Positions 1,937 through 60,085 of a stretch of 64,000 nt of DNA are shown in pieces; positions within the stretch are counted from its first letter, which is position 1; the number at the start of each line of letters is the position of its first letter. The position numbers and the translations under genes were made by a program. The stretch is from Eledone cirrhosa. Taxonomy: Eukaryota. Where the stretch lies: contig OZ024762.1 in assembly GCA_964016885.1 (NCBI GenBank), forward strand, positions 14,570,001 to 14,634,000, read 5' to 3'. The notes beneath the pieces were generated by a model. The model ran no database searches and was not told where the DNA came from. It saw only the letters and a list, made by a program, of their open reading frames with translations.

Positions 1937-1942
1937 TGGGGC

Positions 1943-4900
1943 AGTGACACAGTGTATAGAACCCTAAGTGTAGTGACACAGTGTATACAGACCTAAGTGT
2001 AGTGACACAGTGTATACAGACCTAAGTGTAGTGACACAGTGTATAGAACCCTAAGTGTAGTGACACAGTGTATACAGACCTAAGTGTAGTGACACAGTGT
2101 ATAGAACCCTAAGTGTAGTGACACAGTGTATACAGACCTAAGTGTAGTGACACAGTGTATACAGACCTAAGTGTAGTGACACAGTGTATAGAACCCTAAG
2201 TGTAGTGACACAGTGTATAAAGACCTAAGTGTAGTGACACTGTGTATACAGACCTAAGTGTAGTGACACAGTGTATAGAACCCTAAGTGTAGTGACACAG
2301 TGTATACAGACCTAAGTGTAGTAACACAGTGTATACAGACCAAAGTGTAGTGACACAGTGTATACAATCCTAAGTGTAGTGACACAGTGTATACAGACCT
2401 AAGTGTAGTGACACAGTGTATACAGACCTAAGTGTAGTGACACAGTGTATACAGACCTAAGTGTAGTGACACAGTGTATACAGACCTAAGTGTAGTAACA
2501 CAGTGTATACAGACCTAAGTGTAGTGACACAGTGTATACAGACCTAAGTGTAGTGACACAGTGTATACAGACCTAAGTGTAGTGACAGTGTATACAGACC
2601 TAAGTGTAGTGACACAGTGTATACAGACCTAAGTGTAGTGACACAGTGTATACAACCCTAAGTGTAGTGACACAGTGTATACAGACCTAAGTGTAGTGAC
2701 ACAGTGTATACAGACCTAAGTGTAGTGACACAGTGTATACAGACCTAAGTGTAGTGACACAGTGTATACAGACCTAAGTGTAGTGACACAGTGTATAGAC
2801 CTAAGTGTAGTGACACAGTGTATACAACCCTAAGTGTAGTGACACAGTGTATACAGACCTAAGTGTAGTGACAGTGTATACAGACCTAAGTGTAGTGACA
2901 CAGTGTATACAACCCTAAGTGTAGTGACACAGTGTATACAGACCTAAGTATAGTAACACAGTGTATACAACCCTAAGTGTAGTGACACAGTGTATACAGA
3001 CCTAAGTGTAGTGACACAGTGTATACAGACCTAAGTGTAGTGACACAGTGTATACAGACCTAAGTGTAGTGACAGTGTATACAGACCTAAGTGTAGTGAC
3101 ACAGTGTATACAGACCTAAGTGTAGTGACACAGTGTATACAGACCTAAGTGTAGTGACACAGTGTATACAGACCTAAGTGTAGTGACACAGTGTATACAG
3201 ACCTAAGTGTAGTGACACAGTGTATACAGACCTAAGTGTAGTGACACAGTGTATACAGACCTAAGTGTAGTGACAGTGTATACAGACCTAAGTGTAGTGA
3301 CACAGTGTATACAGACCTAAGTGTAGTGACACAGTGTATACAGACCTAAGTGTAGTGACAGTGTATACAGACCTAAGTGTAGTGACACAGTGTATACAAC
3401 CCTAAGTGTAGTGACAGTGTATACAGACCTAAGTGTAGTAACACAGTGTATACAACACTAAGTGTAGTAACACAGTGTATACAGACCTAAGTGTAGTGAT
3501 ACAGTGTATACAGACCTAAGTGTAGTGACACAGTGTATACAGACCTAAGTGTAGTGACACAGTGTATACAGACCTAAGTGTAGTGACACAGTGTATACAG
3601 ACCTAAGTGTAGTGACACAGTGTATACAGACCTAAGTGTAGTGACACAGTGTATACAGACCTAAGTGTAGTGACAGTGTATACAGACCTAAGTGTAGTGA
3701 CAGTGTATACAGACCTAAGTGTAGTGACACAGTGTATACAGACTTAAGTGTAGTGACACAGTGTATACAGACCTAAGTGTAGTGACACAGTGTATACAGA
3801 CCTAAGTGTAGTAACACAGTGTATACAGACCTAAGTGTAGTGACACAGTGTATACAGACCTAAGTGTAGTGACACAGTGTATACAGACCTAAGTGTAGTA
3901 ACACAGTGTATACAGACCTAAGTGTAGTAACACAGTGTATACAGACCTAAGTGTAGTGACAGTGTATACAGACCTTAGTGTAGTGACACAGTGTATACAG
4001 ACCTAAGTGTAGTGACACAGTGTATACAGACCTAAGTGTAGTGACACTGTGTATAGAACCCTAAGTGTAGTAACACTGTGTATACAGACCTAAGTGTAGT
4101 GACACTGTGTATAGAACCCTAAGTGTAGTAACAGTGTATACAGACCTAAGTGTAGTGACACAGTGTATACAGACCTAAGTGTAGTGACACAGTGTATACA
4201 GACCTAAGTGTAGTGACAGTGTATAGAACCCTAAGTGTAGTGACACTGTGTATACAGACCTAAGTGTAGTAACACAGTGTATACAACCCTAAGTGTAGTG
4301 ACACTGTGTATACAGACCTAAGTGTAGTGACACTGTGTATACAACCCTAAGTGTAGTGACACAGTGTATACAACCCTAAGTGTAGTGACACAGTGTATAC
4401 AACCCTAAGTGTAGTGACACTGTGTATACAACCCTAAGTGTAGTAACACAGTGTATACAACCCTAAGTGTAGTAACACAGTGTATACAACCCTAAGTGTA
4501 GTGACACTGTGTATACAACCCTAAGTGTAGTGACACAGTGTATACAACCCTAAGTGTAGTGACACAGTGTATACAGACCTAAGTGTAGTGACACTGTGTA
4601 TACAACCCTAAGTGTAGTGACACAGTGTATACAGACCTAAGTGTAGTGACACTGTGTATAGAACCCTAAGTGTAGTGACACAGTGTATACAGACCTAAGT
4701 GTAGTGACACTGTGTATACAACCCTAAGTGTAGTGACACAGTGTATACAGACCTAAGTGTAGTGACACAGTGTATACAGACCTAAGTGTAGTGACACTGT
4801 GTATACAGACCTAAGTGTAGTGACAGTGTATACAACCCTAAGTGTAGTGACACAGTGTATACAGACCTAAGTGTAGTGACACTGTGTATACAACCCTAAG

Positions 4901-5900
4901 TGTAGTGACACAGTGTATACAGACCTAAGTGTAGTGACACAGTGTATACAGACCTAAGTGTAGTGACACTGTGTATAGAGACCTAAGTGTAGTGACACTG
5001 TGTATACAACCCTAAGTGTAGTGACACAGTGTATACAGACCTAAGTGTAGTGACACTGTGTATACAACCCTAAGTGTAGTGACACTGTGTATACAGACCT
5101 AAGTGTAGTAACACAGTGTATACAGACCTAAGTGTAGTGACACTGTGTATACAGACCTAAGTGTAGTGACACAGTGTATACAGACCTAAGTGTAGTAACA
5201 CAGTGTATACAGACCTAAGTGTAGTGACACTGTGTATACAGACCTAAGTGTAGTAACACTGTGTATACAGACCTAAGTGTAGTGACACAGTGTATACAGA
5301 CCTAAGTGTAGTAACACAGTGTATACAGACCTAAGTGTAGTGACACTGTGTATACAGACCTAAGTGTAGTAACACTGTGTATACATACCTAAGTGTAGTG
5401 ACACAGTGTATACAGACCTCAGTGTAGTGACACTGTGTATAGAACCCTAAGTGCAGTGACACTGTATACAGACCTAAGTGTAGTGACACTGTGTATACAG
5501 ACCTAAGTGTAGTAACACTGTGTATACAGACCTAAGTGTAGTAGCACAGTGTATACAGACCTAAGTGTAGTGACACTGTGTATACAGACCTAAGTGTAGT
5601 GACACTGTGTATACAGACCTAAGTGTAGTAACACAGTGTATACAGACCTAAGTGTAGTGACACTGTGTATACAGACCTAAGTGTAGTGACACAGTGTATA
5701 CAGACCTAAGTGTAGTGACACTGTGTATACAGACCTAAGTGTAGGGACATTGTGTATACAGACCTAAGTGTAGTGACACTGTGTATAGAACCCTAAGTGC
5801 AGTGACACTGTATACAGACCTAAGTGTAGTGACACAGTGTATACAGACCTAAGTGTAGTGACACAGTGTATACAGACCTAAGTGTAGGGACATTGTGTAT
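1943..5900. repeat. 29-bp tandem satellite (gtgacacagtgtatacagacctaagtgta)n
   Basis: About 4 kb of head-to-tail copies with few variants (cagac/caacc, cacag/cactg, 2-bp deletions). Confidence 0.98.
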
Positions 5901-7340
5901 GCAAACCTAAGTGTAGGGAGACTCTACATACAAACCTAAGTGTAGGTAGACTATATACAAACCTAAGTGTAGGCAGACTATATACAAACCTAAGTGTAGG
6001 TAGACTATATATACAAACCTAAGTGTAGGGAGACTCTACATACAAACCTAAGTGTAGGGAGACTCTATATACAAACCTAAGTGTAGAGAGACTATATACA
6101 AACCTAAGTGTAGGGAGACTCTATATACAAACCTAAGTGTAGGTAGACTATATACAAACCTAAGTGTAGGGAGACTATATACAAACCTAAGTGTAGGGAG
6201 ACTATATACAAACCTAAGTGTAGGGAGACTATATACAAACCTAAGTGTAGGTAGACTACATATACAAACCTAAGTGTAGAGAGACTATATACAAACCTAA
6301 GTGTAGGGAGACTATATACAAACCTAAGTGTAGGGAGACTATATACAAACCTAAGTGTAGGTAGACTACATATACAAACCTAAGTGTAGGGAGACTCTAC
6401 ATACAAACCTAAGTGTAGAGAGACTATATACAAACCTAAGTGTAGGTAGACTACATACAAACCTAAGTGTAGAGAGACTATATACAAACCTAAGTGTAGG
6501 GAGACTCTATATACAAACCTAAGTGTAGGTAGACTACATATACAAACCTAAGTGTAGGTAGACTATATATACAAACCTAAGTGTAGGGAGACTCTACATA
6601 CAAACCTAAGTGTAGGGAGACTATATACAAACCTAAGTGTAGGGAGACTATATACAAACCTAAGTGTAGGTAGACTATATATACAAACCTAAGTGTAGGG
6701 AGACTCTATATACAAACCTAAGTGTAGAGAGACTATATACAAACCTAAGTGTAGGGAGACTCTACATACAAACCTAAGTGTAGGTAGACTATATACAAAC
6801 CTAAGTGTAGAGAGACTATATACAAACCTAAGTGTAGGGAGACTCTATATACAAACCTAAGTGTAGGTAGACTACATATACAAACCTAAGTGTAGGTAGA
6901 CTATATATACAAACCTAAGTGTAGGGAGACTCTACATACAAACCTAAGTGTAGGTAGACTACATACAAACCTAAGTGTAGGGAGACTATATACAAACCTA
7001 AGTGTAGGTAGACTATATATACAAACCTAAGTGTAGGGAGACTCTATATACAAACCTAAGTGTAGGGAGACTCTATATACAAACCTAAGTGTAGGGAGAC
7101 TCTATATACAAACCTAATTGTAGGGAGACTATATACAAACCTAAGTGTAGGGAGATTCTATATACAAACCTAAGTGTAGGGAGACTATATACAAACCTAA
7201 GTGTAGGGAGACTCTATATACAAACCTAAGTGTAGGGAGACTATATACAAACCTAAGTGTAGGTAGACTATATACAAACCTAAGTGTAGGGAGACTATAT
7301 ACAAACCTAAGTGTAGGTAGACTATATACAAACCTAAGTA
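5901..7340. repeat. 27/29-bp sister satellite (gggagactatatacaaacctaagtgta)n
   Basis: Shares the tataca..acctaagtgtag core with the preceding array but has a different left half. Confidence 0.97.
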
Positions 7341-7635
7341 TATAAGTCCCGAATTTTATTTATTACTAAAGCAGTAATAGAGTCTATCAACAGGTATACA
7401 TTCTAACCCCCCCCCCCCCCCTCAACATTGTCTTTAAAAATGTAACAGTAATGACAAAGCATTATGGGTTATATGAAGCACACATCGTTAAGTCACTCTG
7501 ATTTTATACTCGTTTGATAAAGGGTTTCTAACACCGAATTATATATGGACTATAAGGTAAAAACTAATGTTTTGTTTTGTCCTTATTACTTTATTCTACT
7601 CTGGTTGGGCCAATGTATTTCCAATTAGTATGAGG

Positions 7636-8065
7636 TCTCTCTCTCTCTCTCTCTCGAGTGCGTACCACGTGAGGGACGATATCTCTCTCTCTCTCTCGAG
7701 TACGTACCACGTGAGGGACGATATCTCTCTCTCTCTCTCTCTCTCTCTCGAGTACGTACCACGTGAGGGACGATATCTCTCTCTCTCTCTCTCGAGTACG
7801 TACCACATGAGGGACGATATCTCTCTCTCGCACTCTCGAGTACGTACCACGTGAGGGACGATATCTCTCTCTCTCTCTCTCTCTCGAGTACGCACCACAT
7901 GAGGGACGATATCTCTCTCTCTCTCGAGTACGTACCACGTGAGGGACGATATCTCTCCCTCCCTCTCTCTCTCGAGTACGTACCACGTGAGGGACGATAT
8001 CTCTCTCTCTCGAGTACGTACAACGTGAGAAACAACCTCTCTCTCTCGAGTGCGTACCACGTGTG
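7636..8065. repeat. Compound minisatellite: 10 x [(CT)n + cgagtacgtaccacgtgagggacgatat]
   Basis: Constant ~28-bp unit separated by (CT)n of variable length. Confidence 0.95.
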
Positions 8066-8349
8066 AGTGCAACTCTCCCTCACCCTGTGTCGAAATACAC
8101 AGCAAATAAAATGGGACAGTAATAAACAAAATGTGCAACGTAATGGCGTGAAGCGACTGAGTACAAGACCTTTTAATTTGGTTATTATGGCTCTAGATAA
8201 AGTCTATTGAGCTTACTTACTGAGAAACACACAATTTTTTTTCCTTCCCTGTATGTTGTTACAGCTCACACCTATGTAGGTTTAGCTGGCCTCCTCCTCT
8301 TCCTCCAGGGTATATCGTTGGAGGTGTCTTGGGTGATTTAATGATAGGG

Positions 8350-8510
8350 ACCCCAGTCCCTATCATCTCATTTCTACAGCTGAGTAAACTGGAGCAATGT
8401 GAAATGAAGTGTCTTGCTCAAGGAAACAACACATCACCAGGTCCGAGAATTGAACTCACAACCTTTCGATTGCAAACCCAATGCTCTAACTACTAAGCCA
8501 TGCGCCTTCA
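8350..8510 (-). mobile_element. tRNA-derived SINE, family A
   Basis: Minus strand reads TGGCTTAGTAG (A box) ... GAGTTCAATTC (B box) ... ccttgagcaagacactt. Matches copies at 43.9, 46.8, 50.0 and 52.7 kb. Confidence 0.85.
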
Positions 8511-8939
8511 CTAAGTCTATTGAGCTTACTTATTGAGAAACACACAATGTTTTTTTCCTTCCCTGTATATATGGTGGTGATTGGCCAGGTAGAATGATTT
8601 GCGGTATTTGTTCTGGCTCTCTGCACTCTCACTTCGAGGTCGATAAAAGAAATACCTCCCCAAGCACTGGGATTGATTCTTCTATATTTCTTTCTCACTT
8701 CCCACTCTCTTTCTCCTTCTCTTGAAGAAATCGAGAGGAAATAAGCCTCACTAAGTTTTAACTGCCCAAGATACACCGTATGTCAGCCACAACGGCTCCC
8801 CCAGAAGTTATCTATGGATTAAAGAAGAAAAAAATCCACTTAATCCCAGTTTGCTTAAGTTCGTAGACAGCCTAAGTTTTGTATAGTGGTATCTAGTAGG
8901 GTCTTGTTGACTGTGCTAACTTCGGTTCTTAACCTACAT

Positions 8940-9217
8940 TTGAGTTTCATAAAACTTTATCTTTTGAAGGCTAAGATCTTCATTACTTACATCCTACCAG
9001 TTGTGTTATATGGTCTTGACTGTGTTAATTGGACAAGGTCACTTCAGAAGCTCTCTCTACATTCCAGAACCACATCATGAGACTTATGACAGGCAAGCGG
9101 CTCAGCGACCGTATCTGTATCAGTGAGCTGCTCAACATTACCAAACTTAGACCAATTATATCAATTATCAAGTCAAGAGTACTCAAACTGTACGATCATA
9201 TAAAAAGAGTTGTATGA
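8940..9217 (+). pseudogene. RTE-clade LINE ORF fragment (region C-terminal to RT), frameshifted
   Basis: KAKIFITYILPVVLYGLDC..W / LSTFQNHIMRLMTGKRLSDRI..IIKSRVLKLYDHIKR resembles the RTE pattern K.IY..VLP.LLYG.E.W...R.I.G....DRI...RRL.W.GH..R. Confidence 0.8.
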
Positions 9218-10904: not shown

Positions 10905-11360
10905 ATATATATGTACGTATGTATTCACCGAACATTTATTATAATGCTCGGTGTGTTTGTAAACAAACATCCCGTATTAAGCCGTAGTGTCTAGCAACCA
11001 TCGTTGCTCGTTTGTTCAACACTGACAAAGGCACGCTGTTCTAGTTTCAAGCTTATTAGCTATCGTCAGCAACGTATACCTTCCTGCCAGATTGTTGAAC
11101 GTATATACTTACCTTATGCATATTAATGGCTACTCAGCCGTTAATATGCATAAGGTAAGTATATACGTTCAACAATCTGGCAGGAAGGTATACGTTGCTG
11201 ACGATAGCTAATAAGCTTGAAACTAGTACAGCGTTCCTTTGTCAGTGTTGAACAAACGAGCAACGATGGTTGCTGGACACTACGGCTTAATACGGGATGT
11301 TTGTTTACAAACACACCGAGCATTATAATAAATGTTCGGTGAATCCATACGTTCATATAT
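10905..11360. mobile_element. ~450-bp fold-back element, Penelope-like terminal repeat
   Basis: Near-perfect inverted arms of about 225 bp around loop actc (11132-11135). A few arm mismatches. Hammerhead motif in each arm. TA-rich flanks. Confidence 0.85.
11192..11234 (+). ncRNA. Minimal type I hammerhead ribozyme
   Basis: ACGTTG-CTGACGA-T AGCT aata AGCT T-GAAA-CTAG-TA-CAGCGT. Predicted cleavage after 11228. Confidence 0.8.
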
Positions 11361-24062: not shown

Positions 24063-24423
24063 ATATATACGATATTAAATAAATGGAAACTATATTTATA
24101 AAACCATATTTATTTCATTATATATATTTCAGGGATATCATATTAAAAATATGTTATGCCTTCTTCAGACAAAATACAATATAAACAGTCTTATAAATAA
24201 ATAGATTCGACATACCTTTCAACTTCGACTTCTATTTGAAAACTTTTCAAATAGAAGTCGAAGTTGAAAGGTATGTCGAATCTATCTATTTATAAGACTG
24301 TTTATATTGTATTTTGTCTGAAGAAGGCATAACATATTTTTAATATGATATCCCTGAAATATATATAATGAAATAAATATGGTTTTATAAATATAGTTTC
24401 CATTTATTTAATATCGTATATAT
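24063..24423. mobile_element. 360-bp fold-back element with a hammerhead in both arms
   Basis: Near-perfect arms with axis at 24243 (tttgaaaa c ttttcaaa). Left side extends ~90 bp further. (TA)n on both sides. Confidence 0.85.
24310..24375 (+). ncRNA. Minimal type I hammerhead ribozyme (mirror copy on minus strand ~24111-24176)
   Basis: TATTTTGT-CTGAAGA-AGGcATAaCATATT ttt AATATGaTATcCCT-GAAA-TATATA-TA-ATGAAATA. Confidence 0.8.
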
Positions 24424-26674: not shown

Positions 26675-26844
26675 TTATAGGAAAATGTTCAAGACCCCGA
26701 CGGCAGAAATAGCTGTCGAACATTTTCCTATTAGCCACTCTACTACCCTAAGTATTGAGTACTCTGGTACGTTATGGGCCACCTGGTACCTTGCCACACT
26801 GCCTTCGTAATGTATATGTATATGTATGTATATATATATATATA

Positions 26845-27023
26845 TAGGAACGAGTAGGACCCCGACGGCTGAGCTCAAGACGTTTCGGCGGCGAATTAGC
26901 CGTCGAAACGGCTTGAGCTCAGCCGTCGGGGTCCTACTCGTTCCTATTACCCACTCTACTACCCTAAGTATTGAGTACTTTGGTGCGTTATGGTCCACCT
27001 GGTTCCTTACCACATTTCCTTCG

Positions 27024-27026
<3 letters not shown>
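26845..27026 (+). mobile_element. Asymmetric fold-back, family 'ggaacgagtaggaccccgacgg'; copies or fragments at 316, 10154, 24460, 26676, 31839, 40330, 49255, 57400, 57899 and 58115
   Basis: ~45-bp inverted arms plus a ~80-bp one-sided extension, nearly always next to (TA)n. Confidence 0.8.
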
Positions 27027-27075
<49 letters not shown>

Positions 27076-30928: not shown

Positions 30929-31203
30929 CATATTAATAAATGGAAACTATATTTATAAAACCATATTTATTTTATTATACATATTTCAAGGGCAAAAGGC
31001 AAATTATGGTGCGCTTTCATCAGATAAAATACAGATTTGTTTTATAAATAAATATTGACATACCCAGAAAAAACAAATAAATCTATAAAACAAATCTGTA
31101 TTTTATCTGATGAAAGCGCACCATAATTTGCATTGGTTGCCCTTGAAATATGAATAATAAAATAAATATGGTTTTATAAATATACTTTCCATTTATTAAT
31201 ATA
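30929..31203. mobile_element. Fold-back element with hammerheads in both arms (same family as 24063 and 59395)
   Basis: Plus copy 31099-31164: TATTTTAT-CTGATGA-AAGcGCA..TGCcCTT-GAAA-TATGAA-TA-ATAAAATA. Minus copy ~30968-31031 has loop TATGTA. Confidence 0.8.
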
Positions 31204-36814: not shown

Positions 36815-36872
36815 ATACCTGATGATATCACCGGATTCATATGGAACCCGGTCATTGAAATGATCATAGTAT
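36815..36872 (+). ncRNA. Minimal type I hammerhead ribozyme
   Basis: ATAC-CTGATGA-tatc ACCGG aTTC atatg GAAc CCGGT catt-GAAA-TGATCA-TA-GTAT. Confidence 0.75.
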
Positions 36873-38038: not shown

Positions 38039-38631
38039 TATATAATAAAAAGGACGATTTTTTATGTCTTCATTACGTTTATCGATCAGCTCAAGGTTCG
38101 ATCTGTATATCGATCTAGCCCGACAAAAAGCACCCAGTACACACTGTAAGGTGGTAGTGTTGATGCCACGATAAAAAATACCCAGTCCACCCTGTGAAAG
38201 GTGGTAGTGTTAGTGTCATGATAAAAAGCACCCAGTCCACCTTGTGAGGTAGTAGTGCTTCTGCCTTTAAAATACACCCAGTCCACCCTGTAAGGTGGGA
38301 GTGCGGATGCCACGATAAAAAGAAAAAACACCCAGCCCATGTCTGGCAAAGCTGGAGTCATGATTAAAAGCTTCCAGTAACATGCAGTAAAATGGTTGGC
38401 GTTTGAAAGGGCACTTAGTTGTACAAAGTCTAATGTCGGTCTTAAGTCATTTAGGGCTCATTCGGCCAGTGCTTATCCCAGTTTCATGGCACGAAGCGAC
38501 TGAGAGTACAAGACTTCCCCCCTGGACAGGACGCTAGTCCATCACTGGCTTAACCCCCCCCCCCCGCTATTGCTGGTACCCATTTTCAGCTGAGTATACT
38601 GGAGAAATGTGAAATGAAGTGTTTTGCTCAA

Positions 38632-39720
38632 GAACACAACACACAACCCAGCCCAGGAATCAAACTCATGACATTATAATTGTAAGTCCAACACCCTTAC
38701 CACTAGGCCATACACCTCCACAGAACACAACACACAACCCAGCCCAGGAATCAAACTCATGACATTATAATTGTAAGTCCAACACCCTTACCACTAGGCC
38801 ATACACCTCCACAGAACACAACACACAACCCAGCCCAGGAATCAAACTCATGACATTATAATTGTAAGTCCAACACCCTTACCACTAGGCCATACACCTC
38901 CACAGAACACAACAGACAACCCAGCCCAGGAATCAAACTCATGACATTATAATTGTAAGTCCAACACCCTTACCACTAGGCCATACACCTCCACAGAACA
39001 CAACACACAACCCAGCCCAGGAATCAAACTCATGACATTATAATTGTAAGTCCAACACCCTTACCACTAGGCCATACACCTCCACAGAACACAACACACA
39101 ACCCAGCCCAGGAATCAAACTCATGACATTATAATTGTAAGTCCAACACCCTTACCACTAGGCCATACACCTCCACAGAACACAACAGACAACCCAGCCC
39201 AGGAATCAAACTCATGACATTATAATTGTAAGTCCAACACCCTTACCACTAGGCCATACACCTCCACAGAACACAACACACAACCCAGCCCAGGAATCAA
39301 ACTCATGACATTATAATTGTAAGTCCAACACCCTTACCACTAGGCCATACACCTCCACAGAACACAACAGACAACCCAGCCCAGGAATCAAACTCATGAC
39401 ATTTTAATTGTAAGTCCAACACCCTTACCACTAGGCCATACACCTCCACAGAACACAACACACAACCCAGCCCAGGAATCAAACTCATGACATTATAATT
39501 GTAAGTCCAACACCCTTACCACTAGGCCATACACCTCCACAGAACACAACAGACAACCCAGCCCAGGAATCAAACTCATGACATTATAATTGTAAGTCCA
39601 ACACCCTTACCACTAGGCCATACACCTCCACAGAACACAACACACAACCCAGCCCAGGAATCGAACCTACGACATTATGATCGTAAGTCTAACGCCCTTA
39701 CCACTAGACCACGGGCCTCC
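38632..39720 (-). repeat. 12 tandem copies of a 91-bp SINE tRNA head
   Basis: Period of 91 (aggaatc at 38655, 38746 ... 39656). Minus strand carries A box TGGCCTAGTGG and B box GTT(T/C)GATTCC. Contiguous with the SINE body at 38450-38632. Confidence 0.92.
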
Positions 39721-40160
39721 ATTAGTCGTAGAAAGCCATGGTCACCTGACCCCATCTAGCCACATAAATGTGACTACTCGTCAAACCCATGCAAACATGG
39801 AAAATAGACGTTGAATGGCGGTGGTGGTGATAATGAAAGGTCTAGTAGCAGGTACGTTGAGGGGAATTTAGCTGTTATTTCTAGAAAGCAGAGTAACCAA
39901 TTGGTAGCCCCAGCCCCTACCCCCATCGTGGTCACGTGATCGTTGTGTGTATTTCTGAGGAACAATAGAATACTCAGTACTCGTTTGTAAGATATATATT
40001 TTATAAGACATAAAATTCAAAATTCAAGGGGAGGTCACTCTAGCGACACTAACCTCTTCCTTTTCACATTAGCTAATATATGTTGCGCATGAAATGTGTT
40101 TGTATGTGCGAAGGATATCGATGTAAAAGGACATAGAAAAATCTGCTTCGTAGAATCAAG

Positions 40161-40254
40161 ACGTATCTGAAGACCTTGCGATTTTCAGAGTCAGGTTCGA
40201 TCATCACACCGATCGTACCTCGAGCTGGTTGCCTGAGAAACGATTGTAATATGT
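40161..40254 (+). ncRNA. Hammerhead-like motif with long branched helix II, partly decayed
   Basis: ACGTAT-CTGAAGA-[63 nt with internal hairpin]-GAAA-CGATTG-TA-ATATGT; the base of helix II pairs poorly. Confidence 0.5.
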
Positions 40255-40302
40255 CCAATAAATTCCATTCGTCGCAACACTGATTCTCTTTTTTTCTGTG
40301 AG

Positions 40303-41088: not shown

Positions 41089-41312
41089 TAAAGTTAAATA
41101 AAAGTCAAATGATTAAAATTTAGCTTCGTTTATTACTGCTATATATATTTCAGTGACAGCCATCTTTGGCTGTGACCTCTTCAGGTAGTTTGAATTAGTA
41201 TCTAATTCAAACTGCCTGAAGAGGTCACAGCCAAAGATGGCTGTCACTGAAATATATATAGCAGTAATAAACGAAGCTAAATTTTAATCATTTGACTTTT
41301 ATTTAACTTTAT
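41089..41312. mobile_element. 220-bp fold-back element with hammerheads in both arms
   Basis: Arms differ at one visible position; axis at ~41200. One-sided extension to ~40985. (TA)n on both sides. Confidence 0.85.
41211..41265 (+). ncRNA. Minimal type I hammerhead ribozyme (clearest example)
   Basis: ACTGC-CTGAAGA-GGTcACAGCCA aaga TGGCTGTcACT-GAAA-TATATA-TA-GCAGT. Predicted cleavage after 41260. Confidence 0.85.
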
Positions 41313-41380: not shown

Positions 41381-41970
41381 TCATCATCATCATCATCACC
41401 GTTTTACGTCCGTTCTTCCACGCTAGCATGGGTTAGACGGGTTGTCCTGTTGTGGGCAGTGTCTGGTCGGCTGACCATGCCTTGCTCATACAGGAACTGA
41501 TCTGGCTTGATTTCTACAGCTGGATGCCCTTCCTAACACCAACCTCATTTACAGTGAGTGCTGGGTGCTTTTTCGTGGCGCCTACACGTCCACTTTACAG
41601 TGTGGGCTGGGTGCTTTTTTGCCGTGGCACCTCCACGACCACCTTGCGGTGGGGGGGGGGGGGGCATATTGTTTATATGCTTCAGCATGTACCCATGGGA
41701 GGTCGGGTACCCTGTATTACTGCGTGACGCCAGAAGTCACGGTCGTGTGTCATTGACTTTGAGAGGTGTAGTTGGGTAAGGTCGGCTTTTATCACCTCAT
41801 CCCAAGTCATCTTGGGTCTCCCCACTCCGCGGTTTCCATCAACTTCTAGTGCTCTGCACCTTTTTATGCAGCTGTCATCCTTCATACGCATCACATGTCC
41901 ATACCAGCGTAACCGCCTCTCCTGCACGCAGCATTTGATTCCTCTTATGCTCAGTCTCTCTCTCAATTCA
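41378..41970 (-). mobile_element. 3' fragment of an RTE-clade LINE with (ATG)n tail
   Basis: LRERLSIRGIKCCVQERRLRWYGHVMRM..RGVGRPKMTWDEVIKADL, followed by the tail shared with SINE-A and (GAT)n. Confidence 0.88.
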
Positions 41971-42410
41971 TTTATGCTTTTTATATATATATTTATATAT
42001 ATATATTCATTATCATTGTACTATGTAATAAATAGGATGCTCTAGTTGGCACAAGCCCTTACAGTCGTGGAATAATACATATATTTATCTACTGCCATAT
42101 ATAAAATATACTACTTCTCAACATCTCTGGTCCGTGAAACTCTCTCTGCTCTCTAAATTCAAATTCCACAGAGGTCAACTATGCCTTTCATCCTTTCGAG
42201 GTCGATAAAATAAAGAACCATTTCCTCTCTCTCTCTCTATCTCTTTCCATCTTTCTCTGGACGAGATCTGCTGTACTCAGGGCTAGAGAGGAGATGGGCT
42301 CCACCTGGCTTAAAATGCCCACGAAACGCTGTATGTCAATACGGCACCCCTACAACTCTATCAAGAATTACGGCACCATACACACACACACATACACACA
42401 CACACATATA

Positions 42411-44076: not shown

Positions 44077-45345
44077 TAATTCCTGTTACAAGGTTTTAAA
44101 TCAATTTTAAAAATACATTATGTTGCTAATATAACCAATATATTTGTATCAAATCCATGCACTATAACCACATTAACTATTTTTCAAAACATTACGCCAT
44201 TAACAATTAGCAATGGCCATAGAATTGAAAAGAAAGTCCATAATAGAGAAGCATGAAAAAGGCCCGACTCCACCCGAGATATTTAAACTGGGGAGGAAAA
44301 CTCTTAAGATCAATAGAATGTTGATCTAAAGGACAATCGATCAATTTAAGGAAACTTCCTCGACCAAAGACAGACCTCGATCCGGACACCCTCGCACCTC
44401 AAGAACACCAAAGCTCATTAAAAGTGTAGGGAAAAAATAAGGCGTAATCCAAGAAGGTACATGACAAAAATGACAGAAGAAGCAGAAACATCGCCGAGAA
44501 CTATGCGGAGGATATGTCGAGATGATCTGGGGATGTCACCCTATAAGTTCCAAAGGAGGCAGCTTCTTTCTGCAGCCACAATTGAAAAGAGGCTCTCCAG
44601 AAGTAAACTATTATTTAACTGTATCAAGGATGGCATGCTGCAAAACATCATCTTTACAGATGAGAAGTTATTCACTGTGCAGCAGTCTCACAATCATCAA
44701 AATGATCGAGTACTTGCAAAAAGTCTCAAATCAATTCCTTCAAGTGTAGGAAAAGTGTTCAGAACACAGAAACCAGCATCAGTGATGGTTTGGGTAGCCA
44801 TTTTTGAAAGAGGGAAGTCTCCTCTGATTTTTGTGCCTCAAGGAGTTAAAATTAACAAAGAACTTTACATAAAGGATATTTTGGAAGGAGCACTGATGCT
44901 ATGGTGCACATCTGTTTATGGCGATGACATTTGGACTCTCCAACAAGATGGAGTGATGAGCCACACTGCTCGCGTAACACAACAGTGGATCAGTAAGGAA
45001 GAGTGGCCTCCCACATCAGATCTCAACCCTCTCGCTTTTTCTTTATGGTCAATTCTTGAGAGTGAAGCCTGCTCTACTCCTAGCCAAAATATTGAAACTC
45101 TAAAATCAAAACTGAATAAAGTATGGGAGAAAATACCCATGGAAACTGTTCGTGCAGCCATCGAAGACTTTCTTAGAAGACTTTGAGTGGTAGTGAGAGC
45201 TAGGGGAAAGCATTTCGAATAAATTTTTGTGCAGTTGTTTAATAGTATATTACTTACTATTTGTTGAAGTCAGATCTTGAAACAAATATTTTTTTTCAAG
45301 AACTATTTGCATTTTATTTTGTAACAGTTTTTATGCCCCACCCTG
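44077..45345 (+). mobile_element. Decayed Tc1/mariner transposon, maT/DD37D-like
   Basis: 3' TIR ttgtaacagtttttatgccccaccctg|TA. The 5' TIR remnant ctgttacaa is clipped by the adjacent SINE. Confidence 0.85.
44212..45220 (+). pseudogene. DDD transposase pseudogene (intact stretch 44461-45186)
   Basis: IIFTDEKLF, VMVWVAI..GKSPLIFVPQGVKIN, QQDG..SHTA, WPPTSDLNPLAF. The third catalytic D is replaced by A, there is an internal deletion, and the N-terminus (MAIELKRKSIIE) is frameshifted. Confidence 0.9.
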
Positions 45346-47325: not shown

Positions 47326-48023
47326 TCAGTAACAGAGAAGACCCGCCTTACCTAAATATATAGTAAAACCTACTCCAGCCAGTAGGCATCTCTAACAAAA
47401 TACACCCCGTCCCACCACCACCACCCCCACCGCATCCACACTACCCCGTTCTATGTAAAGTTATGTTGGTGCCGCGCCATCCAGGCCGAAACAAATGAGA
47501 TCGTGTAGGTGTCACGACAAAAAAACACACAGTCCACGCTGTAATGTGGCCGTGTAGGCAACACGGTAAAAACCTGCCAGCCCCACACTGTAAATGTGGT
47601 TGGTGTTAGGAAGGGCATCCAAATGTAGAAAACCTGCCAGACAGTCCTATGCGAGCAAGACAATCACTCTTGCTTCAAGTGGGACTACCCCCGTCCAAAC
47701 CCATGCAAGCGTGGAACACGGACGTTAAACGTTGATGATGATATATATATATGTTTATATATATATGTATGTTTATATATATGTATATATATATATGCAT
47801 ATATATGTATATATATATATATAGTCCGATTTGACGAAAGTTGATCGACTGTCTATATATATATATATCTATATATTAATAAAATCACAGAGGATTGTCT
47901 CAAGGTCATTCGTGGAAGTTTTGGACCTGAGTCGGGTATCACTCTGCTCATCAGATTGGTGATTTAACAAAAAGATAAATGCTATCGGTGTTGGGTATAT
48001 AAACACACACACACACACACATA

Positions 48024-48072
<49 letters not shown>

Positions 48073-48079
<7 letters not shown>

Positions 48080-48534
48080 GAAATGACAGGAGGCTGGATT
48101 TGTGTAAATCCTTGAAAGGTTTATTATACTATGATCATTTCAATGACCGGGTTCCGTATGAATCCGGTGATATCATCAGGTATTCGAAATATAATACGTG
48201 AATGTAATAGGTAAAATCCATGGGGCTGAAAATCGAGACCCGAGGGCGACCGCTATTCTGTTCCTTCAACCTCAGCCGGTCGCCCTGGAGTGATGATATC
48301 ACCGGATTCATACGGAACCCGGTCATTGAAATGATCATAGTATAATAAACCTTTCAAGGATTTACACAAATCCAGCCTCCTGTCATTTCATTATAATATT
48401 TAACTCCGTAATAGCACCACCAACTACAAAAACAAAGACGGTTGAACTGCTTTACGTTGAGTACTCTCTATATTATTGCATTACGATTGACCATACGGAA
48501 TAGACCAGCTCTATACAGTGGTGAACCTCAAACC

Positions 48535-48540
<6 letters not shown>
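48073..48540. mobile_element. Asymmetric fold-back with ~105-bp arms and a hammerhead
   Basis: Arms 48073-48178 and 48291-48395. Intact minus-strand hammerhead 48126-48183 (ATAC-CTGATGA..GAAA-TGATCA-TA-GTAT). The plus copy is cut inside the core. Confidence 0.85.
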
Positions 48541-48570
<30 letters not shown>

Positions 48571-48869
48571 GTACCACAATATCCAGTCCAAAATAAATGA
48601 GGTCGTGTAAGTGTCACAAGAAAATAAAAACACGCAGTCCACGCTGTAATATGGCCGTGTAGGTAACACTGTAAAAACCTCCCAGCCCACACTGTAAACG
48701 TGGTTGGTGTTAGGAAGTGCATCCAGCTGTAGAAAACCTGGCAGACAGTCAGTCCTATACGAGCGAGATGACCAATCTTGCCTCAAGTGGGACAATTCTC
48801 GTCTAAACCCATGCTAGCGTGGAAGATAGACGTTAAATGATGATGATGATGATGATGATGATGATGGTG

Positions 48870-48953
<84 letters not shown>

Positions 48954-48990
48954 ATATATAAGATCAAAAGATGGTTAAATGAGTTCCATG

Positions 48991-49061
48991 TATTTTATTA
49001 TGCGCATTTCAAAAACAAATATCATCATGCAATAACATTTGTGTTTTCATCAGATAAAATA
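48991..49061 (-). ncRNA. Minimal type I hammerhead ribozyme
   Basis: Minus strand: TATTTTAT-CTGATGA-AAAcACAAATGTTATT gcat GATGATATTTGTtTTT-GAAA-TGCGCA-TA-ATAAAATA. Confidence 0.82.
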
Positions 49062-49221
49062 GGAGGACATGATATGAAGGTTAATAACACTTGTGGATAG
49101 TGCAGTTTTAAATCAACATATATGAAGGTTAAAGGTTATACTCCAGTCCTACAAACTGTAGAGTGCTTCTTATCCGATATCTGCATTGCTTTATTGTACT
49201 ACAATAAAACTCACCTCCTAC

Positions 49222-49258
<37 letters not shown>

Positions 49259-49460
49259 GAAAATGTTTGACCCCGACGGCAAGCTGAAGCCGTTTCGACA
49301 GCTATTTCTGACTGTCCAGAATTAGCCGTCAAAACGGCTTGAGCTCTCCGCCGTGGTCAAACTTGTTCCTATTACCCACTCTACTACCCTAAGTATTGAG
49401 TACTCTGGTGCGTTATAGTCCATCTGGTTCCTTACCACACTTCCTTCATTATATACACAC

Positions 49461-49643
<183 letters not shown>

Positions 49644-49715
49644 TGATGGTAGCTAAGATGCTTCCATAGGCGGTATGCTGGTTGAGTACTCTATGTTCTT
49701 ACAGAGTAGAGTATG

Positions 49716-49962
49716 GTATAATATAAAACGAAAAATCAGTGATGCATCTGAAATCAATTTATTATGTGTTACAATTGTTTCGCCAACACCCCAGTGAAAG
49801 AATTTGCTCCGAAAGCATTAGACGTGTCTGATGAGCCCGCAGGTCCAAAGTCAGACAAGATCCACACAATGATCGCGTCTCGAGCTGTCCACCGGCGAAA
49901 CAATTGTAACACACAATAAATTGATTTCAGATGCATCACTGATTTTTCGTTTTATATTATAT
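49716..49962. mobile_element. Fold-back element with ~68-bp arms
   Basis: tataatataaaacgaaaaatcagtgatgcatctgaaatcaattt ... and its reverse complement. Decayed relative at 53335-53480. Confidence 0.8.
49824..49912 (+). ncRNA. Hammerhead ribozyme with a large helix-II insertion
   Basis: GTGT-CTGATGA-GCC[56 nt]GGC-GAAA-CAATTG-TA-ACAC. Confidence 0.7.
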
Positions 49963-49970
49963 ATTTATAT

Positions 49971-50304
49971 GGAGGCACATGGCTTAGTGGTTAGAGCATT
50001 GGCCTTGCGATCGAAAGGTTGTGAGTTCAATTCTCAGATCGGGTGATGTGTTGTTTCCTTGAGCAAGACACTTTATTACACATTGCTCCAGTTTACTCAG
50101 CTGTAGAAATGAGATGATAGGGACTGGGGTCCCTATCATTCCACTGCAAAGTGGTCGTGGAGGTGCCACGGCAAAAAAGCACCCAGCACTCACTGTAAAT
50201 GAGGTTGGTGTTAGGAAGGGCATCCAGCTGTAGAAATCAAGCCAGAATCAGTTCCCGTCCCACCCTTGCAAGCAGGGAAAAGTGGACGTATGATGAAATG
50301 ATGA
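49971..50304 (+). mobile_element. Full SINE-A
   Basis: ggaggcacatggcttagtggttagagc ... gagttcaattc ... gtggacgta(tga)n. Confidence 0.88.
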
Positions 50305-57731: not shown

Positions 57732-57767
57732 TCTTAACGTTTCGGACGCTAATTCTTCATCAGAAGA
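57732..57767 (-). ncRNA. Probable minimal hammerhead ribozyme
   Basis: Minus strand: TCTT-CTGATGA-A GAA ttagcg TCC-GAAA-CG-TT-AAGA; one helix-II mismatch. Confidence 0.55.
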
Positions 57768-57898
57768 AAGAGTGGGAAATAAAATAGATTGAGGGGACGG
57801 GCAGGGTGGAATTGGAAAAAGAGTCTTTAGATAAAAGTAACAGGTTCATTCATGTTGACATCTCTTGGAAAACTGTTGGTGCTGGCTATATATATATA

Positions 57899-58093
57899 TA
57901 ACGAAGGAAATGTGGTAAGGAACCAGATGGACCATAACGCACCAAAGTATTCAATACTTAGAGTAGTAGAGTGGGTAATAGGAACGAGTAGGACCCCGAC
58001 GGCTGAGCTCAAGCCGTTTCGACGGCTAATTCATGTCCAGAATTAGCCGTCAAAACGGCTTGAGCTCAGCCGTCGGGGTCCTACTCGTTCCTA
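57899..58093. mobile_element. Asymmetric fold-back pivoting on a hairpin followed by GAAAC
   Basis: taggaacgagtaggaccccgacggctgagctcaagccgtttcgacggctaatt catgtccag aattagccgtcaaaacggcttgagctcagccgtcggggtcctactcgttccta. Confidence 0.8.
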
Positions 58094-59394
58094 TATATAT
58101 ATATATATATATATGGAGGCAGTAAAAACCTGTTAGACCATTACTCGCCAGAGTACACGATAATTGGGGTAGTAGAGTGTGGTAATATTAATGAGTCGGG
58201 ACCCCGACGGCTGAGCTCGTGCCGTTTCAATTGCTAGTTCCAATGTCTTGTATAAGCGAGTTTAGATTAAATATTGTTTTTGTCGATCTGGTTTGCACTC
58301 CCATAAATAGAGTTTTTTTCTCACAAAAATCTAATATTGCCTCTGGGGAGTGATTCCACCCATTCATTAGAGACTAATTAACCATTAATTAATTAATATA
58401 TATTTTAATAATTTGAAAACCATACAATGCACTAGAAAATTAAAATTGTAAGATAATAATAGAATCTTGCCGTAGCAAATTTAATAATCCCATATAAATT
58501 CTCTTTAACACTTGGTCCAGCCATTCGGCTGGGGCCATACACACACACACACACACACAGACACACACACACACACACAGACACACACACACACAGGTAT
58601 AATTCCGTTATAATGAATACTAGTATAACGAATTTTTTTTTTTCAATCCCTGGCCAAACAAACACTCGATGTGTTAGGTCGATCTCGTTATACAAAATGT
58701 TCGTTACAACGAATTTTTTCACATCTCGTGAATTTCGTTATGACGGAATTTCACTGTATAGCTATTTAGGGAGTGTAACGTCAAGTTGGTGTTAGTTTCA
58801 AGTTACTCGATGTGTAGATTCCAGTATGTAATTAGAGGATGTGCACAAATACACAGTACATTATTATAGTCGGTGGTTTGGCAGTATCGGTAGAGGGTCG
58901 GACACCATGCTTTGCAGCAGAGTTACGGCCCTTGCCATTCTGAGGTCAAATCCCGCCGAAGTTAACTTTGCCTTTCATCCTTACGAGGTCGATAAAATAA
59001 AGTACCAGCAATGCACTGCGATAATTGCTGGCCTCGTGCCAAAAACTAGAAACAATTATTATTGTCGTCGATGAGTTACAAAGTAACTTACAAGGGAAGC
59101 AACTAGTGTTGACAAACGTGAGACTGGGGGTGTAAGCACTTAAGAGTTATTTCCCCGTTAAATTGTATTACAAAACTGGCTTTTATAAAAGTCAACCTAA
59201 ATAGGATTTTCTCAAAAAAATGTATAGACACTTGCTGTTGAAGTGGGTATACATTTTTTTTTTTGTATATTAATTCTTAAAAAGGTGGACGAAGACAACG
59301 GAAAAACGGAATACAGAACAGTCCCATCCCATCAGTCGACTTCGTCAGGTATTTGTGATTTCGGTGCATATATATATGTACATATATATACAAT

Positions 59395-60085
59395 GATATT
59401 AAATAAATGGAAACTATATTTATAAAACCATATTTATTCTATTATATATATTTCAAGGGTACCAAAACTTTGGTACGCTCTCATCAGATAAAATACAAAG
59501 TTTGTTTTATAAATATTGACATAACCAAGAAAAAATACCTTAACGGTTCAAATTTTTCATGGATAGTGAAGGAAAAGAGAATAAAAGTCAGACATTTCAA
59601 ATTATTAAGATGAGTATGCAAATGAGGTTGAGGTATAAGACTGAAAAAAAAAACGTTATTTTTAGACGCTGTGCAGAATTTAAATAATTACGATATGTGT
59701 ATGTATGCGTAGGAAGAGGAAAAAAGAGAAAGAAGAGCTTGTATTTACGTTAATTTAAAAGGAATTGCAAGAATGGTGGAATATGATTCCAGAATTTAAA
59801 ATTGATTTAGCTATATTATGAGTTATAATATTGTATATATAATCAATTAGATTATATGAAGAATTATGGCTGTAAGTAGATTTCATCTTATTACATTACA
59901 AATGTAAGCGTACCATGGTTTTGGTACCCTTGAAATATATATAATAGAATAAATATGGTTTTATAAATATAGTTTCCATTTATTTAATATTGAATATTAT
60001 ACTCCAGGAAACTTGTCGAGTGCTCTGAATCAGTTATAAACATTTATATTTGTTGAATTACCAACAAATTGAATATCTCTTTTGC
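59395..60085. mobile_element. Fold-back element with ~400-bp spacer and a hammerhead
   Basis: Minus-strand hammerhead 59435-59495: TATTTTAT-CTGATGA-GAGcGTACCAA agtt TTGGTACcCTT-GAAA-TATATA-TA-ATAGAATA. The right arm starts inside helix II. Confidence 0.82.

Follow-up and report, generated by a model that had tools for sequence, protein, structure and literature searches.

Minimal hammerhead ribozymes of Penelope-like elements (PLEs) were described by Cervera & de la Peña in 2014 (PMC4209133), whose account includes palindromic positions 15.2-16.2 and a palindromic loop 3, U3-A8 core variants, pairs of motifs on opposite strands, and ribozymes that were inactive as monomers and weakly active as dimers and trimers. 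The legend to Figure S8C of Perreault 2011 (PMC3088659) presents a palindromic stem/loop III across ribozymes together with the dimer reading, and PMC6765202 and PMC6466107 both state the palindromic helix III and dimer cleavage, citing Lünse 2016 (Lünse, Weinberg & Breaker); PMC6765202 also cites Forster 1988 on double hammerheads. In axolotl, where 126,247 motifs were reported, dimers cut better (PMC7229834), and retrozymes are described as derived from PLEs (bioRxiv 10.64898/2026.07.22.740005). The hammerhead of a lizard PLE depends on protein and is dispensable for insertion in vitro; the same report describes RT starting at two internal sites, with uncut RNA serving as its principal template, and cleavage assisted by protein (PMC11167929). 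Both the palindromic helix III and cleavage as a dimer had been published before for Penelope hammerheads, and the concept is not new here.

We followed up one such motif, at 48991 in a 64-kb stretch (hereafter the window) of the 3.0-Gb, microsatellite-rich genome of Eledone cirrhosa. The CUGANGA and GAAA core, a U-H cut site and helices I and II are all present (Table 1). Rfam gave no match at gathering score across the 64-kb window, and within 47900-50100 none of its hammerhead families matched at E up to 10. The motif is carried by a dead 280-bp fragment of a Penelope element with (TA)n on both sides, and its 101-nt region was 100% identical in 45 of 48 genome matches (among the matches listed; 40 of 789 candidates were scored). 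It represents the pseudo-LTR hammerhead of a young Penelope element of Hydra-clade-like type, at whose 3' end it lies. The copy in the window stands alone, with no partner motif of its own, so any selection acted on master elements.

Table 1. Hammerhead motifs and associated segments in the window.
Feature	Position in window	Strand	Remarks
Type-I hammerhead motif, TGCGCA family	48991..49061	-	
Helix I of the 48991 motif	49061-49054 / 48998-48991	-	TATTTTAT/ATAAAATA
Core CTGATGA of the 48991 motif	49053-49047	-	
Helix II of the 48991 motif	49046-49011	-	36 nt, 15 bp, -8.4 kcal/mol
GAAA of the 48991 motif	49010-49007	-	
Palindrome TGCGCA of the 48991 motif	49006-49001	-	
Predicted cut of the 48991 motif, after TA	49000-48999	-	reads TA, cut, ATAAAATA
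Inverted arm, pseudo-LTR segment -123 to +51 relative to predicted cut	48946..49121	-	94% identical to full L128 element
Direct arm, 'tail' segment +48 to +136 of same element	49137..49225	+	99% identical to L128
TATATA motif, sister lineage to TGCGCA	24310..24375	+	inverted twin, core at 24168 (-)
TATATA motif, same helix-I clade as 48991	59435..59495	-	
TATGTA motif, G·U at centre, helix I exactly that of 48991	30968..31031 (31023)	-	
TATGAA motif, decayed loop	31099..31163 (31107)	+	inverted twin of 31023 copy
TATATA motif, separate family, unrelated helix I ACTGC/GCAGT	41211..41265	+	inverted twin, core at 41184 (-)
TGATCA motif	36815..36872	+	
Second TGATCA copy	48126..48183	-	
CAATTG motif, 62-nt helix II	49824..49912	+	
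CTAG motif	11192..11234	+	inverted twin, core at 11069 (-), U16.1 lost
Minimal CG motif, no loop, helix II decayed relative to its family	57732..57767	-	family ends in (CA)n/(TA)n
CGATTG motif, one G·U	40160..40255 (40167)	+	
CAATG motif	52255	-	
GTAG motif	12024	-	
Four long-loop motifs	444, 37093, 26548, 23505	+, -, +, -	

The initial annotation had named nine loop segments between GAAA and the cleavage T-H, and all nine lie there at the positions it gave. Its list was correct for the perfect palindromes but left out the imperfect and long-loop motifs of the same window. It had also given 48991 the helix I of the TATATA family, which holds for the copies at 24310 and 59435, related with G·U differences, but not for that at 41211, whose helix I is unrelated; the exact TATTTTAT/ATAAAATA helix recurs in the TATGTA and TATGAA copies 31023 and 31107. 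Penelope-like elements, earlier publication of the dimer idea and the missing partner of 48991 itself do not figure in it. Rearranged, inverted 3'-end fragments of an L199-type PLE are abundant in the window (49224-49455, 26813-27068, 57887-58247). A Tc1/mariner-like transposase fragment (44422-45186, +) and the C-terminal fragment of a LINE-like RT (41682-42020, -) were recognised by eye from the ORF list, and long tandem arrays with periods of about 28-29 and 91 bp occupy 1941-7342 and 38631-39711. The unit carrying TGATCA is a large non-autonomous element, 2.8-2.9 kb long with no ORF of 200 aa in the two direct pairs examined (L220/L221, L213/L214); this family is young, with 40 of 40 matches identical among those listed. 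One of 13 copies of the CG family (L268:1543) has TA in place of CG, which reflects either compensation or the decay of CpG on both strands.

In a protein search, 150 near-identical copies of the host element came up, some with frames of 800+ aa. At locus L128 an 809-aa ORF lies between two direct hammerheads at 3465 and 7329, 3,864 bp apart; the scan found direct pairs around the ORF at 4 of 20 loci (L126, L128, L130, L142), and sister lineages have them at L186, L187 and L205. Pfam and PDB sequence searches of the ORF returned nothing significant. The predicted structure (pLDDT 85) had as its best VIA match a telomerase RT (Z 16.8, rmsd 2.8, 265 aligned), tied within 1 Z with a DGR RT, and telomerases were also among its top Foldseek matches. 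At the C-terminus, a conserved vY...YiG...fK.R pattern falls on two strands and a helix and resembles GIY-YIG clusters with an Atlas feature score of 0.95, GIY-YIG being present on 11% of the members. The ORF carries DKT at 132, RWT at 46 (K to T of RWK) and CNCRIKNKC at 668, and the DKT, RW-x and CxCx5C patterns occur in 39, 34 and 35 of 42 aligned proteins, respectively. Homologues are 31-39% identical. The element shows partial-tandem pseudo-LTRs, inverted 5' copies and an optional tail; its sequence motifs and (TA)n targets fit the description of the Hydra clade in PMC8557442, consistent with a Hydra-clade-like element.

At least four PLE families have many near-identical full-frame copies, and intact PLEs form head-to-tail arrays at C7:78.45 Mb, C1:183.74 Mb and C1:437.20 Mb with periods of 4,011, 6,673 and 3,531 bp. 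Scans found no hammerhead at L197/L198, which represent a related PLE lineage whose 3' region is filled with microsatellites. One of 20 CG-family loci (L265) has a different PLE-like RT/endonuclease fragment upstream, seen by eye with Pfam silent. Attempts to tie the CTAG, GAAC, CTAATTAG and CCGCCGG families to nearby ORFs gave no firm link; those ORFs carry other ribozymes. Retrozyme-like tandem hammerhead repeats (CTAATTAG, CTACGTAG, CTAG) occur at L161, L066, L178 and L146 with periods of 528, 522, 592 and 467 bp.

We scanned 1,064,000 nt (the window, its flanks and 80 evenly spaced tiles) for the core with helices I and II, blind to loop sequence. The strict scan yielded 109 candidates, compared with a total of 9 when this DNA was shuffled five times (1.7 per Mb), and a relaxed scan yielded 236 against 50 in one shuffle. 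Five decoy cores gave 0-3 matches; the decoys GTTT and AAAG mostly re-found true motifs in shifted register and are therefore no valid controls. From 78 strict matches in the 80 10-kb tiles on contigs C1-C5 we extrapolated 2.9 x 10^5 motifs (bootstrap 2.1-3.8 x 10^5), about 2% of them expected by chance, and 19 strict motifs in 20 further tiles agree with this figure. Including variant cores raises the density to 139 per Mb and the total to 4.2 x 10^5 (3.1-5.3 x 10^5). We estimate 2-4 x 10^5 motifs in the genome, with an upper reach of 5 x 10^5; these totals are extrapolations from 1 Mb, namely 100 evenly spaced 10-kb tiles with about 100-140 motifs per Mb. Among the 117 short-loop motifs of the 100 tiles, 14 had a same-strand partner, 46 an inverted partner only, and 57 none within the tile.

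The relaxed scan, clustered with the loop masked, gave 25 families seen at two or more loci. Four long-loop families were set aside, leaving 21 with loops of 2-8 nt; one of these was re-read by hand at a second GAAA, and a doubtful CC family was kept as a miss. In a 6-nt segment the outer pair belongs to the normal helix III, so only inner pairs inform on dimers, and we counted those pairs that would leave a loop under 3 nt in the monomer and are hence dimer-only. Across the 21 families, 33 of 39 such pairs were Watson-Crick (37 of 39 with G·U included), and the innermost pair was Watson-Crick in 15 of 20 families (AT 6, TA 4, CG 4, GC 1); with repeated loops counted once, the figures were 28/33 and 13/17. 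Control windows in the flanks (n = 76) averaged 28% Watson-Crick with a maximum of 49%, and apical loops II were palindromic in 1 of 21 families. Permutation gave p values of 5e-6 (the floor of the test) and 2.5e-5 (range 5e-6 to 1e-4), which overstate independence because the families are related and are to be read as upper bounds on the evidence. Loop length was even in 20 of 21 families. In twenty held-out tiles with 19 motifs, 28 of 33 pairs were Watson-Crick and 10 of 19 loops were perfect palindromes. An additional display of 11 hand-picked 6-nt loops, in which 44 of 44 cells are paired, serves as illustration and is no test.

These counts support the idea, put forward in the initial annotation, that selection keeps the helix III palindrome, as judged from a loop-blind test in which dimer-only pairs are mostly paired, all four pair types occur innermost and the held-out tiles agree. 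Nor are the loops only as palindromic as chance would make them: perfect palindromes made up 59 of the 109 strict candidates and 0 of the 9 from shuffled DNA, and the flank windows stayed at their 28%. Loop variants that depart from Watson-Crick pairing favoured G·U over A·C, by 4 to 0 among those present at two or more loci and by 9 to 1 with single copies included, small numbers from which 8 families judged to be chance matches had been dropped beforehand; this excess points to pairing on the RNA sense strand. Inner pairs are broken in GAAC (homoduplex +2.4), GGAC, CCTCTGG and TATTTA, and in the doubtful CC family. Two long loops keep a central palindrome (GAGCTC, CTAG). Two lineages tied to ORFs have a long, monomer-competent helix III together with variant cores (L195:4279, CAGAAGA; L199:682/4213/7744, TTGAGAA, U3-A8), which may mean that a stable helix III is traded against a strong core. 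The four long-loop motifs of the window (Table 1) also belong to lineages with such a helix III.

An RT tree built from 14 genome rows and 8 homologues placed the TGCGCA lineage as sister to TATATA/TATGTA with support 100/100, so the helix I they have in common reflects descent. TATATA and TGCGCA differ by two compensatory changes, both at dimer-only pairs, and TATGTA, a common state of the lineage, is the wobble state of the inner TATATA/TGCGCA pair. Deeper lineages carry CGATCG, CAATTG and CGGTCG. Paired or wobble steps also separate related, mostly single, copies (CAATTG/CAGTTG/CAGCTG, CAATTG/CATATG, CTGATCAG/CCGATCGG).

Folding predicts that helix III of 48991 alone is a 2-bp stem at +4.7 kcal/mol, and that its homoduplex reaches -10.5 kcal/mol with an 8-bp duplex AUGCGCAU/AUGCGCAU and swapped helix I strands. 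The strand-swapped double hammerhead scored -32.7, where two active monomers scored -12.8 and two monomer MFEs -21.2. An unconstrained co-fold of two 48991 motifs (-33.3) had helices I and III as in the double hammerhead, so that the strand swap between two ribozymes proposed at the outset is also the predicted co-fold. The designed dimer beat two monomer MFEs in 6 of the 8 window motifs tested, the exceptions being 36815 (TGATCA) and 31023 (TATGTA). We therefore favour, with a probability of roughly 0.75, the reading that the motif is the pseudo-LTR hammerhead of a Penelope-like retrotransposon that likely cuts only as a strand-swapped double hammerhead, a need that would account for a palindrome kept while its letters change from lineage to lineage. 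Catalytic activity of the dimer is inferred by analogy with published Penelope and retrozyme hammerheads. In one tandem transcript the two pseudo-LTR motifs would pair with each other and so free an RNA of unit length (3,864 nt in L128), which might then be circularised; the protein of the element may assist the cutting. The many fragments that are solo or inverted, the 48991 copy among them, would remain inactive.

Of the 45 distinct long copies that remained when 7 duplicates were taken out of 52 rows, 1 has its 5' end at the predicted cut site, and none of 25 bystander copies from four families does. Copy 3' ends lie past the predicted cut, at +51 in 43 of 89 and at +134 to +136 in 29 of 89, which means that the copied RNA was uncut or re-ligated there, in agreement with PMC11167929. 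Among inverted 5' copies (L096-L145), 7 of 17 end between -17 and +1 of the cut site, a post hoc observation; these ends, most of them at the base of helix II or at GAAA, may mark RT pausing at the folded ribozyme. Bystander copies show the same stop weakly (5 rows from 4 loci of 25; another window holds 8).

Such ends would suit a selected role that is structural, the dimer holding the two pseudo-LTRs, or two RNA molecules, together so that RT can copy or switch templates, while cleavage is incidental or the ribozyme a passenger. The missing pile-up of 5' ends at the cut site, the downstream 3' ends and the inverted copies that stop as if RT had met a folded, uncut structure are in line with it, as are the catalytic mutants that still insert in vitro (PMC11167929) and the Naiads that thrive without canonical hammerheads (PMC8557442). 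We nevertheless consider it unlikely: the catalytic core is kept in every family, down to covariation from C3-G8 to U3-A8, which a mere pairing site would not need, and the stop signal fades in the bystander copies.

We give still less credence to a monomeric ribozyme in which the element's protein stabilises a helix III of 1-2 bp and the palindrome is helix III plus chance. The outer pairs, expected in a monomer, are Watson-Crick in 89 of 90 cases, cleavage of the lizard element is protein-assisted (PMC11167929) and a few families are not palindromic inside; yet the innermost pair, impossible within one strand, is Watson-Crick in 15 of 20 families with four pair types, 20 of 21 loops are even in length, and the CG family has no loop at all. 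Equally improbable are palindromes that arise at the DNA level, by microsatellite slippage, as by-products of inverted duplication or because the element's protein binds or nicks there. In favour of this, no perfect loop is commoner than TATATA, in a genome rich in (TA)n (a resemblance that counts against the dimer reading), one family holds both TATATA and TATATATA, and inverted pairs account for 46 of the 117 short-loop motifs. Against it, the GC-rich TGCGCA, CGATCG, CCATGG and CCGG are kept equally well, neighbouring windows are not palindromic, the preference for G·U over A·C on the ribozyme strand (4 to 0; 9 to 1) is not predicted by DNA symmetry, and the loop letters are too varied for one protein site.

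The palindrome could also tell lineages apart. Retroviruses offer an analogy in their dimer-initiation palindrome. The predicted cross duplex of TGCGCA with TATATA stands at +5.7 kcal/mol, against -10.5 and -3.2 kcal/mol for the two homoduplexes. As a doubtful, analogy-based extension, we suggest that this genome may exceed all others counted so far in its hammerhead load (about 2-4 x 10^5) and that its helix III palindrome may serve as a code of lineage identity. Families that are co-active and compatible in helix I, TGCGCA and TATATA for example, would then have diverged at helix III, preventing cross-dimers, and dependence on the dimer would stop solo copies from cutting host transcripts. 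Against such a code, TATATA, CTAG and CAATTG each recur in several families and TATATA cross-pairs with TATGTA; a strict code of one palindrome per family was considered and is not supported.

Compared with known systems, the Eledone motifs resemble the metazoan PLE hammerheads of PMC4209133 in being type-I motifs in pseudo-LTRs with a short palindromic helix III and a long helix II, and in having many sequence families per genome, a U3-A8 variant, solo copies and close opposite-strand pairs. They differ from the hammerheads described there in loops of mostly 6 nt (range 2-8), a helix II of up to 113 nt and covariation tied to an RT tree in one genome. The survey of Perreault (PMC3088659) and the newt and ASBVd double hammerheads (Forster 1988, as cited in PMC6765202) provide the same observation and inference as ours; those of newt and ASBVd, however, belong to short tandem repeats or viroids, whereas the Eledone partner lies about 3.9-4.0 kb away in complete elements. 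The non-LTR retrozymes (PMC7229834; bioRxiv 10.64898/2026.07.22.740005) have counterparts in the CTAATTAG, CTACGTAG and one CTAG family, which form tandem repeats of 467-592 bp, and in the TGATCA unit with its lack of an ORF; unlike them, the 48991 family is autonomous.

Also close is the Hydra clade of C-terminal EN+ PLEs, which as described by Craig et al. 2021 (PMC8557442) has in common with the Eledone element the DKT and RW-x motifs, the CxCx5C linker, canonical hammerheads, (TA)n targets, tandem and inverted insertions with a tail, and perhaps the C-terminal GIY-YIG-like domain. That clade has RWK where the 48991 family has RWT, units generally under 3 kb rather than 3.9 kb (3.5-6.7 kb in sister families), and a tail of 30-40 bp rather than about 83 nt; unlike the clade as described, Eledone has several families with many near-identical intact copies. 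The literature, mostly outside subscription papers, yielded no tree-anchored test of these pairs and no larger motif count, and Lünse 2016 may contain a covariation analysis. New here are the tree-anchored covariation inside one genome and the estimate of 2-4 x 10^5 motifs. More than 20 families in one genome, with covarying dimer-only pairs and wobble states on an RT tree, form a natural data set, and together with several families of intact, near-identical copies they make it easy to test what the ribozyme does when Penelope elements transpose. The copy number estimated here lies well beyond the 2,000-9,000 per genome of PMC4209133 and exceeds the axolotl's 126,247 (PMC7229834), raising the question of how the host tolerates such a load.
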